Shown: positions 10,319 to 47,195, counted from the stretch's first letter. The stretch is DNA of 64,000 nt from an uncultured Candidatus Saccharibacteria bacterium (GCA_964355515.1 CAYHDV010000001.1:26544-90543), one strand, 5' to 3'. Notes: generated by a model from the sequence alone, not told the origin. Program-made: numbers and translations.

Positions 10319-11005
10319 ATGAAAATTCATAGATTTTTTGTCGATTTGCCATATGAGACGGACGAGCTGATTATTTCTGACAAAGAATTGGTTCACCAAA
10401 TGAATAATGTACTCAAACTCAAATCTGGAGAATTTGTAGAGCTTTTTGATGGTTCAGGTAGTGCCTTTCTAGGTGAAATAAGTAGTGTCTCAAAAAAATC
10501 TGTAGAAATTAAAAATGGGGAAATTAAAAAAGTGGCAGATACTCGAAAAGAAATTTTCGCCTATATTCCCCTTCTACGCCGAACAAACACAGAACTTATA
10601 ATCCAAAAACTCACCGAGCTTGGAATCAAAAATATAATCCCCATCAAAACAGATAGAACAATCAAGTCCGATGTGAATCAAGAGAGGCTAAAGAAAATCT
10701 CGATAGAAGCCACCGAACAATCCGGACAATACTTCCTCACCAATATCAGCGAACCACTCAAGCTCAAAGAGGCTCTCGAGAGAGCCTCTGGTACAGATAT
10801 ATTTGTTCTAGATATGGGAAATGATTCTTTCCGAAACCATAAGCGCACCTATCCTCTATCATTTTTTGTTGGGCCTGAAGGTGGCTGGACAGATGAAGAG
10901 CGAGAGCTGTTTAGAAACTCTGGCGCAAAGATCGTAACACTCACAGACACTGTCCTACGAGGAGAAACTGCTGTTATCCTCGCGGGTTATGAAGCTCTTT
11001 ATTAA
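10319..11005 (+). CDS. rsmE: 16S rRNA (uracil1498-N3)-methyltransferase RsmE
   Basis: 228 aa. MKIHRFFVD N-terminus and C-terminal SPOUT domain (FFVGPEGGWTDEE). Confidence 0.8.
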   Translation: MKIHRFFVDLPYETDELIISDKELVHQMNNVLKLKSGEFVELFDGSGSAFLGEISSVSKKSVEIKNGEIKKVADTRKEIFAYIPLLRRTNTELIIQKLTELGIKNIIPIKTDRTIKSDVNQERLKKISIEATEQSGQYFLTNISEPLKLKEALERASGTDIFVLDMGNDSFRNHKRTYPLSFFVGPEGGWTDEERELFRNSGAKIVTLTDTVLRGETAVILAGYEALY

Positions 11006-11524: not shown

Positions 11525-11630
11525 CGAAAAGCAAGAAACCAGCCGCTAGAATCCCAGCCACGGGACCAATCCTAGAGATCCACCCTGCGGCCAACCCAGT
11601 CCCCCCAAAGCCCGGGAACCTTGGACGCGG
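11525..11630 (-). repeat. DGR-like variable repeat (VR) candidate spanning the stop codon (11572-11574) of lipoprotein gene 11572..12027
   Basis: Direct repeat of 11050-11155. It carries N substitutions only where the TR has A in the sense strand. The TR frame is rich in AAT/AAC/GAC codons. Confidence 0.75.
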
Positions 11631-12027
11631 TGGTTTTAGAACCAAGTGCGATGATACTCATTTCGCGTTGCAATCTGGGATATTCGTTTCCCAGGGTGAG
11701 AAGTTCGCGAGCGGTTGCTGGCCGAAGTCCACGGACAACCATCTGTGCCACAATATCTTCAGAAGACATTTTTCGGTTAAAGTTGAGTAGGATGGCTTCA
11801 CGGGTCATGATTGTGTCTTTCTTGTCATCTCCACCTTTTTGGATAAAGGCATTGTTGGAAATACCAGAATTGACCAAGTCATAGTTTCCCATGGTCACAA
11901 GGTCATCAATTGACTTGGAATAGTCAATTATGACATTCATCCGTAATTCATCGATTTGGTTTCCTCCACCACAAGATGAGAGGATTGCCATTGCTGGCAA
12001 GAGGGCAAAAAGTGTTAGCTTTTTCAT
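11572..12027 (-). CDS. Small lipoprotein; putative DGR target protein (C-terminal 18 aa encoded by the VR)
   Basis: 151 aa with signal peptide and lipobox (AILSSC). C-terminus ...ASKVPGLWGDWVGRRVDL lies within the repeat. The TAG stop sits in the middle of the repeat. Confidence 0.7.
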   Translation of the reverse strand: MKKLTLFALLPAMAILSSCGGGNQIDELRMNVIIDYSKSIDDLVTMGNYDLVNSGISNNAFIQKGGDDKKDTIMTREAILLNFNRKMSSEDIVAQMVVRGLRPATARELLTLGNEYPRLQREMSIIALGSKTTASKVPGLWGDWVGRRVDL

Positions 12028-12046
12028 AATATTCGGTTTTGAAGTT

Positions 12047-12064
12047 TAAGTATATGTTAACATA
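12047..12064. promoter_or_regulatory. Perfect 18-bp palindrome GTATATGTTAACATATAC, 20 nt upstream of the lipoprotein start; operator candidate
   Basis: Exact inverted repeat overlapping the expected RBS/-10 region of gene 11572..12027. Confidence 0.4.
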
Positions 12065-12192
12065 TACGGGTATCTTTGTCAAGGATTATTGTGATGGCAT
12101 GTATTATATGTAGAAATGACAAGTTTTAGAACTTGCAAACCTTTCGACACTTGAGCTTTAACTTTTAAAATATTCACGGTTTTTTTGATTAG

Positions 12193-12245
12193 TGCGTAGC
12201 GTCTTTGCGAGGAGCTTGGCGACAAAGCAATCCAGGGTTCAATCA
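12193..12245. repeat. Short dispersed repeat, about 50 bp, copy A
   Basis: gcgtagcgtctttgcgaggagcttggcgacaaagcaatccagg matches the reverse complement of 20683-20735. Degenerate relatives at about 11297-11335, 12355-12400 and 12420-12478. Confidence 0.7.
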
Positions 12246-12519
12246 CCTTATTGTGAATGGGGTGCGTTTCAGTGTCCATAGATCCTGAACTAAATTCAGG
12301 ATGACAGGTATATTGTATAGTGTTGCCCATTTAGATCCTGAAATGTACCCTCACTTCGCTGTGGAGTACTAAGTCCTGGATTGCTTCGTGCCTCGCAATG
12401 ACGATACGTTTTATGAGTACTCTCTGGATTGATTCATGCCTCACTTCTTCGCCAAGGCTACGAAAGTGCACGGCGCAATGACAAAATTGTTTGCATGTGA
12501 CAAGCATTACTTTTAGATT

Positions 12520-13290
12520 TTAATCTTTCAGAAAAATTTTCTTTACTTGCTCAGTAGAAATCACTCTTGCATCCTCTACTTTATATTCTCCGATAGAAAT
12601 TCTCCGGAGAGCAGAAAGTGTAGCCGGTACGCCAAGTCTACTGCCTAGCTCGCGAGCAAGTGATCGAATATACGTCCCAGAACCAACATCAAAAGTGACC
12701 CTCAGAGCGACCTCACCCCAGCCCTGCCTGCCGGCAGGCAGGCCTCTCCTTATCAATGAGAGGGGGCTAGCCGATGACCCTTCTCGCTTCGAGTCGTTTC
12801 TTTTAATTTCTTTTAACTTTACCGAATGTACAAGCATTGTCTTTATCGGTACTTCGACCTCTTGGTCTTTGCGGGCATATTTGTACAAAGCCTTTCCATC
12901 TTTTTTGATAGCTGAATACACAGGCACAGCTATTTTTTGCTCACCTAGTAGAGTTTCTAATTTTTCCTTTATCTCTTTGTCTTCTAGAGCCGAAGCGTCC
13001 GCTTCCGCAATCACTTCCCCTTCCAAATCATCTGTTGTGGTTTGTTTACCCAACAGAATTTCTGCTTCATAGACTTTTGATTTGCCAATTAGCCCTGTGA
13101 GCTCCTTTGTCATCTTCCCCACACCCACGAGGATTAGTCCTGTAGCCCTCGGGTCGAGCGTCCCTGCGTGACCTATTTTGATTTTCGCATGTCCGGCTTC
13201 TTTGTACTCTCGTTTCAAAAAACGAATCACATCATACGATGTCACGCCAAATGGCTTGTCTATCAAAAGTAATTCCCCTTCTGGATTCAT
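12520..13290 (-). CDS. truB: tRNA pseudouridine(55) synthase TruB, carrying an in-frame roughly 30-aa insertion that contains a GC-rich palindrome
   Basis: 256 aa. LIDKPFGVTSYDVI, catalytic HAGTLDP, C-terminal GTYIRSLARELG. The insertion encodes ...SPLSLIRRGLPAGRQGWGEV. Confidence 0.85.
   Translation of the reverse strand: MNPEGELLLIDKPFGVTSYDVIRFLKREYKEAGHAKIKIGHAGTLDPRATGLILVGVGKMTKELTGLIGKSKVYEAEILLGKQTTTDDLEGEVIAEADASALEDKEIKEKLETLLGEQKIAVPVYSAIKKDGKALYKYARKDQEVEVPIKTMLVHSVKLKEIKRNDSKREGSSASPLSLIRRGLPAGRQGWGEVALRVTFDVGSGTYIRSLARELGSRLGVPATLSALRRISIGEYKVEDARVISTEQVKKIFLKD
12722..12752. repeat. GC-rich perfect palindrome CCTGCCTGCCGGCAGGCAGG embedded in-frame in truB
   Basis: Near-identical palindrome CCTGCCTGCCGGACAGGCAGG at 23519-23540 inside grpE. 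Confidence 0.7.
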
Positions 13291-22974: not shown

Positions 22975-23592
22975 TTAGTTTTTCAATTTATAAACCTCTA
23001 CCTTCGCTGGCCGGATAACTGAACCCTTCATTTCATATCCTCTCTGGATTATCTTTGCGATAGTGTCTTCTTTTGACGAATCATCTGTTTCAATTTGATT
23101 TAGAGCCATATGCTTTTCAGGATCAAATGTATCTCCTTCTTTTGTTGGTAAGTCCTTTATCCCGAAACCTTCGAGTGTGCTTTTGAATTGCTTATAAATA
23201 TGTTCTACGCCAATTCGCCAATTCTGATCCACGCTCTCCCACACTTCTTTATTCATCATTGCCATATCGAAGTTGTCGAGTGTGCCAAGAAATTCTGACG
23301 TGATAGCTTCTTCGAGAATTTCTCGCATGCGAGTACGCCGAGCATCATCTTCTTTTTTGTAATTAGTGAAGTCTGCTCGTTCTCTCTGCCATCCATCCAG
23401 ATACTCTTTTGATTTTTCTTTGAGGTCTTTTATTTCTTGTTTGAGCTGTTTGATCTTATCCTTCGAGAGTCCTTCTGTCTCATCAAACTCAATATCGTCG
23501 GCTTCATCACTTAGAGGCCTGCCTGCCGGACAGGCAGGTTCAACCTCTGAAAAAGATTCTTCAAAATCTTCGTTTGTGTCGTCTTTTGGCAT
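22975..23592 (-). CDS. grpE: Nucleotide exchange factor GrpE, with a GC-rich palindrome inserted in-frame in the N-terminal disordered region
   Basis: 205 aa. Coiled-coil and C-terminal beta domain (...MKGSVIRPAKVEVYK). The insert encodes EPACPAGRPL. Confidence 0.85.
   Translation of the reverse strand: MPKDDTNEDFEESFSEVEPACPAGRPLSDEADDIEFDETEGLSKDKIKQLKQEIKDLKEKSKEYLDGWQRERADFTNYKKEDDARRTRMREILEEAITSEFLGTLDNFDMAMMNKEVWESVDQNWRIGVEHIYKQFKSTLEGFGIKDLPTKEGDTFDPEKHMALNQIETDDSSKEDTIAKIIQRGYEMKGSVIRPAKVEVYKLKN
23514..23550. repeat. Nested palindrome AGAGG-CCTGCCTGCCGGACAGGCAGG-TTCAACCTCT inside grpE
   Basis: The inner GC-rich palindrome matches the truB copy. The outer AGAGGTT-AACCTCT arms recur at 23747-23761 and 47177-47191. 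Confidence 0.7.
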
Positions 23593-23652
23593 AGTTTTTT
23601 AAGCAATTAACTAAACTAATAATCTAAGTTCCTATATTGTATACAAAATAAA

Positions 23653-23700
23653 TTATTTTGACAAGTTTTTAGTGGTCGCTAAATTATTGTCAAAATAAAT
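23653..23700. promoter_or_regulatory. Inverted repeat ATTATTTTGACAA-N21-TTGTCAAAATAAAT overlapping divergent -35 boxes of the grpE operon and the regulator gene; operator candidate
   Basis: 13-bp arms. TTGTCA/TACAAT promoter on the minus strand and TTGTCA/TATATT on the plus strand. It is not a CIRCE or HAIR consensus. Confidence 0.45.
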
Positions 23701-23775
23701 ATAACATGCTATATTGTATTACATCAACTTATCCACAGTTTAATACTTAGAGGTTCAACCTCTAACGCTTATATT

Positions 23776-24342
23776 ATGAAGAAAAAATCATTACAAGACC
23801 AAATCCTAAGGGCTCTAGGTACCAAGAAAACGCTCAAAATGGGTGATTTGCATGATGCTTTGAGCGAGGGAAAGATAGTAGATAAACTAGGGGCTAATGC
23901 AGACCAAAACGACCCCACAAAGGCAAAATATGCCTTAAATCGGTCGCTCAAGACTCTCCGGGACTCTGACCTGGTAGAGCAGTTTGACACTGAGCAATCA
24001 AGATACCTCCGGCTCACAAAAGAAGGTAGACAGAAACTCCGAAATATCAAACTCACCCATCCAAATAGCCTTGTTTCTACTTCTTGGGATGGCTTTTGGC
24101 GAATGATTCTTGTGGATATTCCAGAAGATAGGAAAAGTGAAAGGGAGAGCTTCCGGTATCTTTTGAAAAAGGCGGGATTTCTATGTCTGAAAAATTCAGT
24201 CTGGGTTTCTCCCTACCCTTTGGAGCATATGTTTTTTGAAATAAAAAAAGATCTAGGCTTTGGAACCGAAGTCATGATCTCTGTCTCTAAACTAGATTCT
24301 GAAACAGAGGAAGGATTGTTTAAACAATTTGGGATGAGGTAG
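23776..24342 (+). CDS. Winged-helix transcriptional regulator, PaaX-like C-terminal domain
   Basis: 188 aa. WDGFWRMILVDIPEDRKSERESFRYLLKKAGFLCLKNSVWVSP resembles PaaX_C. Terminator at 24345-24375. Confidence 0.55.
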   Translation: MKKKSLQDQILRALGTKKTLKMGDLHDALSEGKIVDKLGANADQNDPTKAKYALNRSLKTLRDSDLVEQFDTEQSRYLRLTKEGRQKLRNIKLTHPNSLVSTSWDGFWRMILVDIPEDRKSERESFRYLLKKAGFLCLKNSVWVSPYPLEHMFFEIKKDLGFGTEVMISVSKLDSETEEGLFKQFGMR

Positions 24343-25234: not shown

Positions 25235-26902
25235 TTATTTTTCCAAAAACAATCTCGCAATTTGGATATCATAATACGAAGTGTTTTTTGTCTTATTCTT
25301 TACAGGAGAAAGGTGTAGCTCCCCTGTTTCGTTGTAAATTTCTTGAAATGCTTGGAGGGTCTCCTCAAACTTCTTTCCTCTTGGACGCAGATAGAGAATG
25401 TCATCTAGAACAATAGTCCCCTCATCTAAGAGCTTTTCTATATGAGTCAAAACTGTTTCTTTGGTTAGCTCTCGCTCTTTGGCGATATCATCTATTTTCT
25501 TCCCTTCTTCAAGTGAAGCACGCGTCTTGTGGTGAGAAGGGATTTTCTCTTTTAACTCCTCTTCTTTACGCCAATCTATTTTTTCGAGTGACCCGGCGCT
25601 GTTTTCTATAAAAGTCTTCATGGAATCTTCTAATTCTTTTTCTGTTTTTTTATTTAAATATTCTTTTATTTTCATTGATTTTAGTTGGAGTTTTTTGTCT
25701 TCTTCTAAAACAAGAGGGTGGATCATAAGTGCATCTGGATTGAACCCCAAAAGCTTTATCCCTTGGAGAGTCCGGACACGCGAAAGCGCAACATAGCCCT
25801 GCCCGTACTCAAAAGCCTTGCCAAGGTCTATTTCGGCTGCATCAAGAGACATCCCTTGGCTCTTGTGTATGGTGATAGCCCAAGCTAAACGAAGTGGTAG
25901 TTGAGTGACTTCGGCTAGAGTTTTTTCACCATCTTGGATGGCCCATGTGGCTGGCTCAATAATAATATTCTTACCATTATTCATTGCCACGATAGGATAG
26001 CCGTGTTTTTCGTCGAAGCTAACAATTTCACCAAGTGAACCATTTACATATCCTTTTTCAAAATTATTTTTTGTGCACATCACCCGAGCACCCTTTTTTA
26101 AAGCTAGGGTGTGAGGAGAAAGACAAGAATCAACAAGTTTCTGAACGTGTGTAGATGGCCCACGAGTCTCCATAGTGTAGACTTCTGGATTAGACACCAG
26201 TTTAGCCAACTCCTGGCTATTGATATTATCAACATCAATATTGTGAGTATAAAGTTTCGTAGAAACAACAACATCTTCAAAATCAATATCCATCCTCTCC
26301 CTCAGCATCTCAGAATTCTCATGACCATCTCCCTGCCTTATCATAGAGAGGAGTGACAATAATTCTTCATCTTCTTGTCTGTGTTGCTCTCCAATATAAC
26401 AAATAAGAGGAGAAAGCTCTTTCCATGCATCAGAAAGAAAGGCAAATTTTGCAGATTTATCACGAGAAACAGGGGGAAGTTGAAAGAAGTCTCCCACGAG
26501 TACAATCTGCAGTCCTCCAAATGGTCTTGGGTCTTTTGTAAATTGTTTACAAACTTTGTTTAGCAAATCCATAGTTTCTGCGTCCAGCATTGAAATCTCA
26601 TCAATAACCAACACTTTTGTATTGGTAAATCTTTTGTGGAGATACTTTTTTTCTACCAAGTCAGAGATAGATTTTTGATCCATTTGTTTGTTTATTCCTA
26701 TCCCAGCCCAAGAATGAATAGTCACTCCTCCAACATGGGTCGCAGCAATACCAGTCGAAGCTGTGACAGCCACAGAAATACGGTGCTCTTTGAGATAATC
26801 AATATACTGGTTCAACACATGAGTCTTCCCTGCCCCTGGAGCTCCAGTCAAGAAAACATTTGCTCCAGTTTTGAGGATTTGTAGTGCTTCTGTTTGTAAC
26901 AT
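25235..26902 (-). CDS. PIF1/RecD-like superfamily-1 DNA helicase with C-terminal HTH domain
   Basis: Walker A LTGAPGAGKT, Walker B VLVIDEISM, GxxxQLPPV motif, and C-terminal HTH_40-like tail. The start was chosen at internal MLQTEALQ; the upstream ORF extension overlaps a separate small gene. Confidence 0.75.
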   Translation of the reverse strand: MLQTEALQILKTGANVFLTGAPGAGKTHVLNQYIDYLKEHRISVAVTASTGIAATHVGGVTIHSWAGIGINKQMDQKSISDLVEKKYLHKRFTNTKVLVIDEISMLDAETMDLLNKVCKQFTKDPRPFGGLQIVLVGDFFQLPPVSRDKSAKFAFLSDAWKELSPLICYIGEQHRQEDEELLSLLSMIRQGDGHENSEMLRERMDIDFEDVVVSTKLYTHNIDVDNINSQELAKLVSNPEVYTMETRGPSTHVQKLVDSCLSPHTLALKKGARVMCTKNNFEKGYVNGSLGEIVSFDEKHGYPIVAMNNGKNIIIEPATWAIQDGEKTLAEVTQLPLRLAWAITIHKSQGMSLDAAEIDLGKAFEYGQGYVALSRVRTLQGIKLLGFNPDALMIHPLVLEEDKKLQLKSMKIKEYLNKKTEKELEDSMKTFIENSAGSLEKIDWRKEEELKEKIPSHHKTRASLEEGKKIDDIAKERELTKETVLTHIEKLLDEGTIVLDDILYLRPRGKKFEETLQAFQEIYNETGELHLSPVKNKTKNTSYYDIQIARLFLEK

Positions 26903-26979
26903 ATTTATTATTGTAGCATGTGAAAAAAGATTTCTTCCTCTAAAAAATAAAAAGAAAAAGCTCCCCAGAAGAAGAGCTT

Positions 26980-27198
26980 TTACGAAGGCAAAATCCTTTG
27001 GACGAATTTTCTTAGAAGCATAGCCGTAAAAAACACAATGCTTACAAAAAATAGAAGTACAGAGATGCAAATAAAAACAATCATCACAATTCTGTTTTCT
27101 ATTCCAAGCCAGATAGCAATGTGTTCCCATGGCTCTAGGAGTAATACTCCTACTTTCCAGAAAACTCCACCAATCAAAGCAATCAACAGCTTTTTCAT
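26980..27198 (-). CDS. Small two-TM membrane protein
   Basis: 72-aa hydrophobic ORF MKKLLIALIGGVF... It sits between terminators at 27250-27280 and the helicase gene. Confidence 0.45.
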   Translation of the reverse strand: MKKLLIALIGGVFWKVGVLLLEPWEHIAIWLGIENRIVMIVFICISVLLFFVSIVFFTAMLLRKFVQRILPS

Positions 27199-47156: not shown

Positions 47157-47195
47157 TTTATATTCTAGTTTTTTCAGAGGTTGAACCTCTGAAAA

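Follow-up and report, generated by a model that had tools for sequence, protein, structure and literature searches.

Two housekeeping genes of an uncultured Candidatus Saccharibacteria bacterium, truB and grpE, carry copies of a 20-bp GC-rich palindrome, CCTGCCTGCCGGCAGGCAGG (hereafter P), which behaves as an extremely small and apparently undescribed mobile DNA hairpin would. Both genes lie in a 64,000-nucleotide stretch of DNA (GCA_964355515.1, CAYHDV010000001.1:26544-90543; the window), the GC content of which is 0.38 compared with 0.80 for P. The closest TruB and GrpE relatives of the host are of the Parcubacteria/Paceibacteria type within the candidate phyla radiation (CPR). P is best understood as a minimal, non-autonomous selfish hairpin that is copied by a specific trans-acting factor and spared at permissive sites, a reading to which we assign a probability of roughly 0.55. 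The data demonstrate presence/absence polymorphism between close relatives, identity across phyla, a lack of target duplication, a bias towards hairpin loops and an excess of 21-bp copies in open reading frames (ORFs). A literature search with the P string, its halves, the encoded peptides and descriptive terms returned no description of the sequence.

The first copy of P (12723..12742; palindromes are given without strand) is a perfect 20-mer, as reported in a first-pass annotation of the window, and lies within truB (12520..13290, minus strand), which encodes a 256-residue tRNA pseudouridine-55 synthase related to PF01509/PF16198. It forms part of an in-frame insert of 75 bp, or 25 codons (12715..12789, minus strand; KREGSSASPLSLIRRGLPAGRQGWG), in which P, predicted to read LPAGRQ(G), contributes 20 bp and the remaining 55 bp are unique and hairpin-rich, with no similarity to them found in either the window or the P-bearing loci (1.6 Mb). 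The predicted peptide across the P-bearing insert is ...IRRGLPAGRQGWGEVALR..., and the predicted RNA folding energy of the whole insert is -32.9 kcal/mol. In alignments the insert is exclusive to the window protein, where it separates the conserved ...KEIKRNDS and EVALRVTFDVGSGTYIRSL segments and leaves the GTLDP and GTYIRSL motifs unbroken, one on each side. It is missing in 16 aligned relatives, 11 of which share 74-84% identity with the window protein and display a short turn, RREGS/ERKGS, at the equivalent position; at the DNA level the 75-bp block is missing in all three relatives compared. The GC content of the insert is 0.64 vs 0.43 in the remainder of the gene. In the AlphaFold model of the window TruB, which has a mean pLDDT (predicted local distance difference test score) of 83, the insert is the sole disordered segment (residues 168-189, pLDDT <50) and occupies the tip of a hairpin formed by strands 149-165 and 193-202, so modelled probably the kind of place that tolerates added residues.

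The second copy (23518..23538) is a 21-bp variant, CCTGCCTGCCGG-A-CAGGCAGG, with one added central base. It is located in grpE (22975..23592, minus strand), where it contributes the seven codons PACPAGR, in the peptide context ...EVEPACPAGRPLSDE..., to an N-terminal tail whose length and sequence are hypervariable among relatives; judged by this variability, the site too would be of a kind that accommodates additional residues. This copy splits another palindrome, AGAGGTTSAACCTCT, an entity separate from P, to give the composite hairpin AGAGG-P-TTCAACCTCT (23513..23548; predicted RNA folding energy -21.2 kcal/mol). Two intact copies of the outer palindrome are present in the window: TTAGAGGTTCAACCTCTAA, an empty site between a PaaX-like gene and grpE (23747..23765 in extended form, core 23749-23763), and, between mreB and the gene for the delta' subunit of DNA polymerase III, the extended form TTTTCAGAGGTTGAACCTCTGAAAA (47171..47195, core 47176-47190). 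The outer 15-mer has four matches at ≤2 mismatches against 0.13 expected. The first-pass annotation had recognized the nesting of P and the two intact outer palindromes, with coordinates that were 1-2 nt off, had placed the grpE copy at 23519-23540, and had put the TruB insertion, real in itself, at roughly 30 aa where alignment gives 25. Its view that both reading frames are preserved holds for the two genes. The truB 20-mer by itself, however, would shift the frame, which is kept only through the 75-bp insertion.

An indication of mobility comes from a GrpE relative (P0121, locus L121) that is 98% identical over the aligned part. The L121 protein reads GAAGACTTAGAGGTTCAACCTCTAAGTGATGAA where the window protein reads TCAGAGGTTGAA(CCTGCCTGTCCGGCAGGCAGG)CCTCTAAGTGATGAA, an exact gain in the window of 21 bp and seven codons (PACPAGR). 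The gain falls inside the outer palindrome, which in the grpE of L121 is present as the unsplit TTAGAGGTTCAACCTCTAA. Conversely, the intergenic outer palindrome at 23747-23765, unoccupied in the window, holds a P variant, CCTGCCTGCCGGACAGGTAGG, in L121 (2782-2817), at the same relative position within the palindrome; the same composite thereby occupies a different site. Two genomes that are nearly identical thus show presence/absence polymorphism in both directions, which is the signature of a sequence that is mobile or otherwise actively generated. Independent assemblies, namely Logan ERR3856787 and a SPAdes contig from ENA (L215 and L216), also contain the window GrpE allele with P, and its presence in other samples, recovered by other assemblers, shows that it is not an assembly artefact. 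The inserts are missing from the aligned TruB and GrpE orthologues, as the original proposal of insertion requires, and both palindromes are genuine, recent, frame-preserving insertions in essential genes.

P recurs far more widely than the first-pass annotation had guessed. A scan for CCTGCCTGCCGG-N0-1-CAGGCAGG in GTDB, with one genome per species, yielded at least 120 loci, which were assigned to phyla from record titles. These comprise 43 loci from Bacteroidota, 34 from Patescibacteria (spanning many classes), nine from Omnitrophota, eight from Planctomycetota/PVC (Planctomycetes-Verrucomicrobia-Chlamydiae), eight from Gammaproteobacteria/Pseudomonadota, four each from delta-proteobacteria/Thermodesulfobacteriota and Nitrospirota, two each from Bdellovibrionales and Chloroflexi, one from Elusimicrobia and five unclassified, so that the carriers listed represent about 10 phylum-level groups. 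Most carriers are metagenome-assembled genomes, and they also include one single-cell genome and seven cultured Bacteroidota isolates, for example Winogradskyella echinorum, Flagellimonas yonaguniensis and Aquiflexum lacus. Viral contigs in IMG/VR contributed 65 more loci, with GC contents from 0.38 to 0.69, and a single 29.5-kb contig (L163/L171/L174) contains six copies. In the viral scan a control palindrome of the same composition with the arms swapped, GGCAGGCAGG-N0-1-CCTGCCTGCC, gave 0 matches vs 65 for P, as did a second control that matches P in composition and repeat character, CCAGCCAGCCGG-N0-1-CTGGCTGG; P was never found in 100 dinucleotide-preserving shuffles of the window sequence. 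Genomes of cultured phages contained no match to P, and no exact full-length P was listed for the plasmid collection, where only short or imperfect near-matches were seen, in GC-rich replicons. These two results indicate that P is a feature of particular, mostly environmental lineages.

The flanks of P differ and are unrelated between copies in both genomic and viral loci, and thus the unit is the 20-mer itself. At its centre P has zero or one added base, which can be any base, and this agrees with a hairpin whose stem has 8 bp and whose loop has 4-5 nt; structure prediction, proposed in the first-pass annotation, gives this hairpin an energy of -8.0 kcal/mol as DNA and -13.9 kcal/mol as RNA. 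In L203 P breaks a GGTTAGA heptamer array exactly in register, and in L101, from the cultured A. lacus, it lies between TCTAAAA units with the array kept in register. Neither target duplication nor target deletion was evident at P, as judged on these heptamer arrays and on the exact 21-bp gain in grpE. Among 222 outward flanks no target consensus or conserved cleavage motif was apparent beyond weak biases: the first outward base is seldom A (8%), there is a weak excess of TCG directly after P, and a three-nucleotide identity between flank and P end (AGG before P or CCT after it) occurs at 7.3% vs 2.9% (p = 0.002) and is present at both window sites.

A preference for hairpin loops was evident when P was removed in silico and the resulting junctions were compared with random positions of the same loci. 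Junctions fall in the loops of perfect stems of ≥6 bp in 12.2% of cases vs 6.0% for random positions (p = 0.0014), and in loops of stems of ≥8 bp in 3.7% vs 0.7%. In L023 and L049 P is nested within P, in L097 it occupies the exact centre between CCCGGTTTC and GAAACCGGG, and elsewhere it is found in the loop of a hairpin that is itself a repeat, GGGTGCCCCATCCTYG...CRAGGGTGGGTC, and whose sister copies hold other loops, one of them a different mini-palindrome. The grpE copy, inside the outer palindrome, is a further case of such nesting. The 29.5-kb IMG/VR contig contains many copies of this GGGTGCCCCATCCTYG-loop-CRAGGGTGGGTC repeat, in which the loop is CGGTTTTTG, TCCGCCGCGGCGGA or CGGTTTTTG together with P, an architecture that is modular and of a hairpin-in-hairpin type.

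Several copies of P are found in tRNA-like sequences, at the D-loop or the variable loop. Most of these tRNA-context copies are 5' pseudo-fragments adjoining an intact tRNA, from which a small GIY-YIG ORF sometimes separates them. Targeting of functional tRNA D-loops by P was considered and rejected, as most cases are such 5' pseudo-fragments and only in L167, where P forms a long extra variable arm of a tRNA-Met, is the P-bearing tRNA intact.

Most copies of P are intergenic, those of viral contigs often lying between genes within larger hairpin-forming repeats. P is free of stop codons in all six frames. Long open frames hold 29 of the 50 21-mers compared with 30 of the 143 20-mers (odds ratio 5.2, p = 2e-6), and in loci with a GC content <0.55 the corresponding proportions in long ORFs are 7/23 and 9/96 (odds ratio 4.2, p = 0.015). 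This excess of the 21-bp form in ORFs is the pattern that purifying selection on the reading frame would produce. Decayed copies, in which one arm is perfect and the other mutated with no compensatory change, are numerous in the same loci, and all 78 solo half-sites in the 1.6 Mb are decayed copies of P. Such abundant one-armed decay argues for the birth and death of copies and not for selection on each hairpin. A derivative of P with one altered arm, CCATGCCTACCGGCAGGCAGG, is also repeated in tandem at least ten times, as units of 21 bp, in a viral contig (L187 3915-4124), where the array continues to the end of the fetched stretch.

Insertions in the window genes were placed in context by comparison with orthologues from three relatives (L121, L122 and L124). 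Six distinct in-frame indels of ≥4 aa were identified, four of which contain palindromes with stems of ≥8 bp: the two window copies of P, a 16-aa hairpin-rich insert at a different site in the TruB of L124, and a palindrome in rsmE of L124. The last is an inserted 24-bp perfect palindrome, TCGCAAGTTCTTAAGAACTTGCGA (L124 11520-11545). At the other TruB site, in-frame inserts of 16-18 aa are seen in L124 (10430-10480) and L126 (~735-800), consisting of TCCAGCGAAGCTGGA and ACGCTTTTAAAAAAGCGT in one relative and TCAGATGAGTCATCTGA in the other. The hairpin inserts in TruB and rsmE of the relatives had no match in any unrelated locus examined.

The genes around P offer few clues to an enzyme. A Pfam scan of about 50 window ORFs identified no transposase, recombinase, HUH protein or REP-associated tyrosine transposase (RAYT; REP, repetitive extragenic palindrome), the encoded proteins being housekeeping in nature (DnaB, RecR, TrpRS, CysRS, AlaRS, DnaK/DnaJ/GrpE, ribosomal proteins, RpoA, FtsA/FtsZ, MreB, a Pif1-like helicase and others). 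When 3,482 ORFs from 120 genome loci of 8 kb were clustered all against all, no family proved recurrent near P, the largest clusters (ABC ATPases, glycosyltransferases and similar) being represented in ≤5 loci each, and no RAYT was seen near these loci either. No parent insertion sequence (IS) with the arms of P as its termini was detected, as half-sites in the 1.6 Mb never end an element of 0.7-3 kb. A search of the whole window against Rfam at the gathering threshold returned one tRNA-Glu alone, and at a permissive threshold positions 12000-12850 gave nothing meaningful. Small GIY-YIG nucleases, detected with a hidden Markov model built from local matches, are present in 7 of 185 loci, in three or four of which they adjoin P and a 5' tRNA fragment; as the activity behind P they are a weak lead and not an explanation. 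ORFs of this type (about 80-100 aa) stand directly beside P or decayed P in L044 (2100-2440), L181 (450-820), L012 (3250-3540) and L093 (2727-3040). In L044, L181 and L093 the copy of P next to the nuclease is carried by a tRNA-like fragment. An intact tRNA comes next in L044 and also in L181, where it is a tRNA-Asn with a 566-nt intron.

In the reading we prefer, a single constrained 20-nt sequence, with an 8-bp GC stem, a CCGG loop and occasionally one added loop base, would be the source of new copies. These would enter the chromosome without target-site duplication and would favour single-stranded or already hairpin-shaped DNA, probably by way of a single-stranded intermediate. Copying would be carried out by a sequence- or structure-specific trans factor encoded outside the window, possibly a single-strand- or hairpin-recognizing enzyme such as an HUH/Y1-type transposase, or else a structure-specific nuclease followed by repair. 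P is considered non-autonomous because neither a transposase nor a recombinase is encoded among the about 50 window ORFs and no gene recurs near the 120 loci. Selection would subsequently purge copies except in intergenic DNA, tRNA-like variable loops and disordered protein loops, in the last case where the length added in total is divisible by three. The survivors in this genome would be the copy within the 75-bp block at the tip of the TruB beta-hairpin and, in GrpE, the 21-bp form located in the unstructured N-terminal tail; the two are presumably translated through, as LPAGRQG and PACPAGR, and tolerated by the respective proteins.

Several observations weigh against this interpretation. 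No enzyme for the copying was found in about 50 window ORFs or 120 loci, and a unit of 20 bp is, to our knowledge, below the size of any characterized transposable substrate. There is no conserved flanking cleavage motif, only the depletion of A and the weak excesses of AGG before and TCG after P. The loop bias is only moderate, and the random-position control leaves intergenic enrichment uncorrected. As the loci were gathered by exact match, both the conservation of the stem and the ratio of exact to decayed copies are biased, and the former is partly an ascertainment effect. Finally, since the 20-mer alone would shift the frame, the truB insertion calls for a history of several steps or, alternatively, for a separate origin of the 75-bp block.

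The main competing explanation is that P spreads passively and without an enzyme, through template switching or short-homology (ectopic) gene conversion between hairpins, such that a nascent strand stalled in a hairpin loop copies P elsewhere and then returns. We consider this rather unlikely overall, although it may well contribute to spread within a genome and would account for the occurrence of P in the loops of other hairpins and in P itself, and for the weak excess of three-nucleotide identity between flank and P end, an identity that both window sites show. The identical AGAGG-P21-TTCAACCTCT composite at two copies of the outer palindrome in two relatives is also what conversion between copies predicts, and the four palindromic in-frame indels among the six are mostly unique sequences that template switching could make. 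Passive copying, however, should propagate decayed variants as well and allow the consensus to drift by lineage, yet the same 20-mer is dominant in CPR, Bacteroidota, Planctomycetota, Proteobacteria and viral contigs, and decayed copies look like dead ends; nor does such a route account for the crossing of phyla. A specific factor is favoured over passive copying because the 20-mer dominates in unrelated phyla despite the abundance of decayed copies.

The data contradict each of the other proposals, in which P is a selected cis-element, an artefact or chance product, or a member of a known rickettsial family. A functional cis-element (such as a hairpin bound by a conserved factor of host or phage, a hairpin that acts in termination or RNA stability, or a site of translational pausing) would be consistent with the intergenic location of the majority of copies, often between viral genes and embedded in larger hairpin repeats, and with the predicted stability of the RNA hairpin. 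It is nevertheless improbable, as copies occur in either reading context, in unrelated proteins, in tRNA pseudo-fragments and in one another, the truB and grpE copies are absent from close relatives, which show no compensating change, decay is one-sided and non-compensatory, and the hairpin is not followed by a U-tract. An assembly or sequencing artefact, or convergence by chance or through simple (CCTG)n sequence, might be entertained on the grounds that P is composed of CCTG/CAGG tetranucleotides and that its carriers are mostly metagenome-assembled. We regard it as very unlikely indeed given that the frames of essential genes are kept, different assemblers return the same allele, seven cultured isolates and one single-cell genome contain P, and neither the control palindromes nor the shuffles yielded matches. 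The palindromes had been likened to the Rickettsia palindromic elements (RPEs), and the presence of an in-frame palindromic repeat in housekeeping genes of a reduced AT-rich genome lends this some appeal. The behaviour of P is indeed analogous, but actual membership of the RPE family can be given almost no credence, since it is incompatible with the length and host range and apparently with the encoded peptide (PMC10969869): the unit is 20-21 bp and not about 100-150 bp, its hosts are CPR, Bacteroidota, PVC and others, and a conserved RPE peptide is apparently not encoded.

RPEs are palindromic elements of about 100-150 bp that are restricted to Rickettsia and encode a conserved peptide (PMC10969869). 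They are non-autonomous and insert in frame into unrelated housekeeping genes, adding an extra surface peptide, and also occur between genes (PMC10969869, PMC1779305). P resembles them in its in-frame position and predicted read-through in the protein-coding genes truB and grpE. RPEs, however, constitute about ten Rickettsia families, whereas P is one 20-21-bp sequence shared by many phyla and viral contigs, with no apparent conserved peptide and no family-specific flanks, and nothing but P recurs within the 75-bp truB block. Membership is rejected on length and distribution; the length alone excludes homology over the whole element. Another parallel is offered by the GC clusters of yeast mitochondria (such as GC42) and the hairpin elements of sponge and chytrid mitochondria, which are short GC-rich palindromes in AT-rich genomes (PMC4478555, PMC2800124). 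These are polymorphic between close relatives, horizontally exchanged and able to merge or nest into composites, and the enzyme that moves them is not known (PMC4478555, PMC2800124). P displays the same contrast in GC content, the two-way polymorphism between the window and L121, and nested composites. The mitochondrial elements differ in being organellar, 30-60 bp long and lineage-specific, with putative target-site duplications reported, whereas P is bacterial and viral, 20 bp long and identical across phyla, with no duplication seen.

REPs and REPINs are palindromes of 20-40 nt that form single-strand hairpins and are moved by RAYTs, which are IS200/IS605-like Y1 transposases; this is the best-understood route for moving a bare hairpin. 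In REPs the palindrome is imperfect and a 5' GTAG is conserved; they are extragenic, species-specific and found beside a RAYT gene. P is likewise hairpin-forming, non-autonomous, clustered with other repeats and not associated with target duplication. It differs in being a perfect palindrome with no GTAG or conserved flank (222 outward flanks), in crossing phyla and in occurring inside genes, both window copies being intragenic. MITEs, or miniature inverted-repeat transposable elements (Correia, ERIC, BOX and others), measure 50-500 bp, derive from a parent IS and produce target-site duplications. P shares with them small size, non-autonomy and inverted arms, but consists of two abutted 10-bp arms with nothing between them, and for P neither a parent IS nor a duplication was found. 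Bacterial MITEs have been described as small non-autonomous repeats with inverted ends that can produce in-frame fusions (PMC10969869, PMC3184786).

If P is mobile, a bare 20-nt hairpin can spread across distant phyla and viruses and into essential proteins and tRNAs. This would lower the known size limit of transposable units and point to an enzyme or repair pathway that acts on hairpin DNA. P accounts for a class of unusual peptide inserts with GC-rich coding (LPAGRQ, PACRQAG, CLPAGR), as well as for small ORFs annotated spuriously in metagenomes. It also gives rise to indels able to mislead marker-gene alignments and phylogenies of CPR bacteria, and supplies presence/absence markers for strain-level population genetics of uncultivated lineages. 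As seven carriers are cultured Bacteroidota, the mechanism is open to experiment.

P belongs to a broader population of shared mini-hairpins that has been little described. A broader formulation, which is possible but which we hold only tentatively, is that P is the substrate or product of an unrecognized hairpin-inserting activity common to many environmental phyla and viruses, and at 20 nt the smallest known mobile DNA unit, belonging to an undescribed cross-phylum set of mini-hairpins. This set might include GTC-ATCCTGAAC..GTTTCAGGAT-CTC, CCGCCAGCTGGCGG and hairpins of the '...GCAATGAC' type, and its members would keep reshaping intergenic DNA, tRNA-like sequences and loops of proteins. One candidate for the activity would be the small GIY-YIG nucleases beside P-bearing tRNA fragments.

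P is not the only hairpin family of the window to recur across phyla. A second one is represented by GTCATCCTGAACTCGTTTCAGGATCTG and ATCCTGAACTAAATTCAGGATGAC (846-874 and 12280-12306). The copy at 846-874 has the form GTC-ATCCTGAACTCGTTTCAGGAT-CTC, and an identical 21-mer, ATCCTGAACTCGTTTCAGGAT, is present in 12 viral contigs with GC contents of 0.39-0.71, with related forms in L042 and L124. Copies of ATCCTGAACTCGTTTCAGGAT are nearly always flanked by GTC...CTC, and the family, unlike P, has conserved asymmetric flanks. The 14-bp palindrome CCGCCAGCTGGCGG occurs six times in the 1.6 Mb of P-bearing loci, in different phyla (L014 3333, L019 2858, L021 161, L038 967, L047 2963 and 4469), against an expectation of about 0.006.

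The outer palindrome that P splits in grpE has a distribution of its own. In three lineages two or three copies, TTAGAGGTTSAACCTCTAA, surround the grpE start, including the first codons (EVQPL); the sites are at 23747-23765, 23513-23548 and 47171-47195 in the window, 2782-3074 in L121 and 708-797 in L124. Those at the grpE start are always beside a divergent PaaX-like regulator gene (23776..24342 in the window). Because it clusters at the 5' region of grpE in three lineages, next to this gene, the outer palindrome may be an operator of the grpE-dnaK operon that has been split by P, rather than a mobile repeat. Upstream of grpE the promoter regions of the window (23600-23745) and L121 (2830-2940) are near-identical and contain the inverted repeat TTATTTTGACAA..TTGTCAAAATAA. 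The 5' untranslated region and first ~20 codons of grpE, by contrast, are wholly different in the two genomes, with the breakpoint at the outer palindrome, a pattern in the alignment that suggests segment replacement through recombination at this palindrome. Two genes from grpE, at a position conserved in L121, lies a gene for a Pif1-family helicase (25235-27130; PF05970, with HTH_40). Pif1 helicases unwind structured DNA.

The surroundings of truB are also rich in hairpins. The spacer between a lipoprotein-like ORF (11572..12027) and truB (12028-12519) is densely occupied, especially at 12190-12500, by hairpins of the '...GCAATGAC' type, examples being TTGCGAGGAGC..GCGACAAAGCAATCC and GGATTGCTTCGTGCCTCGCAATGAC. 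Only about 150 bp separate truB from rsmE in two relatives, L122 and L123, indicating that the window has gained about 1.4 kb here. Within the window rsmE (10319..11005) there is a further palindrome, AGAGGCTCTCGAGAGAGCCTCT (10768-10789), with a 10-bp stem and a GC content of 0.59.

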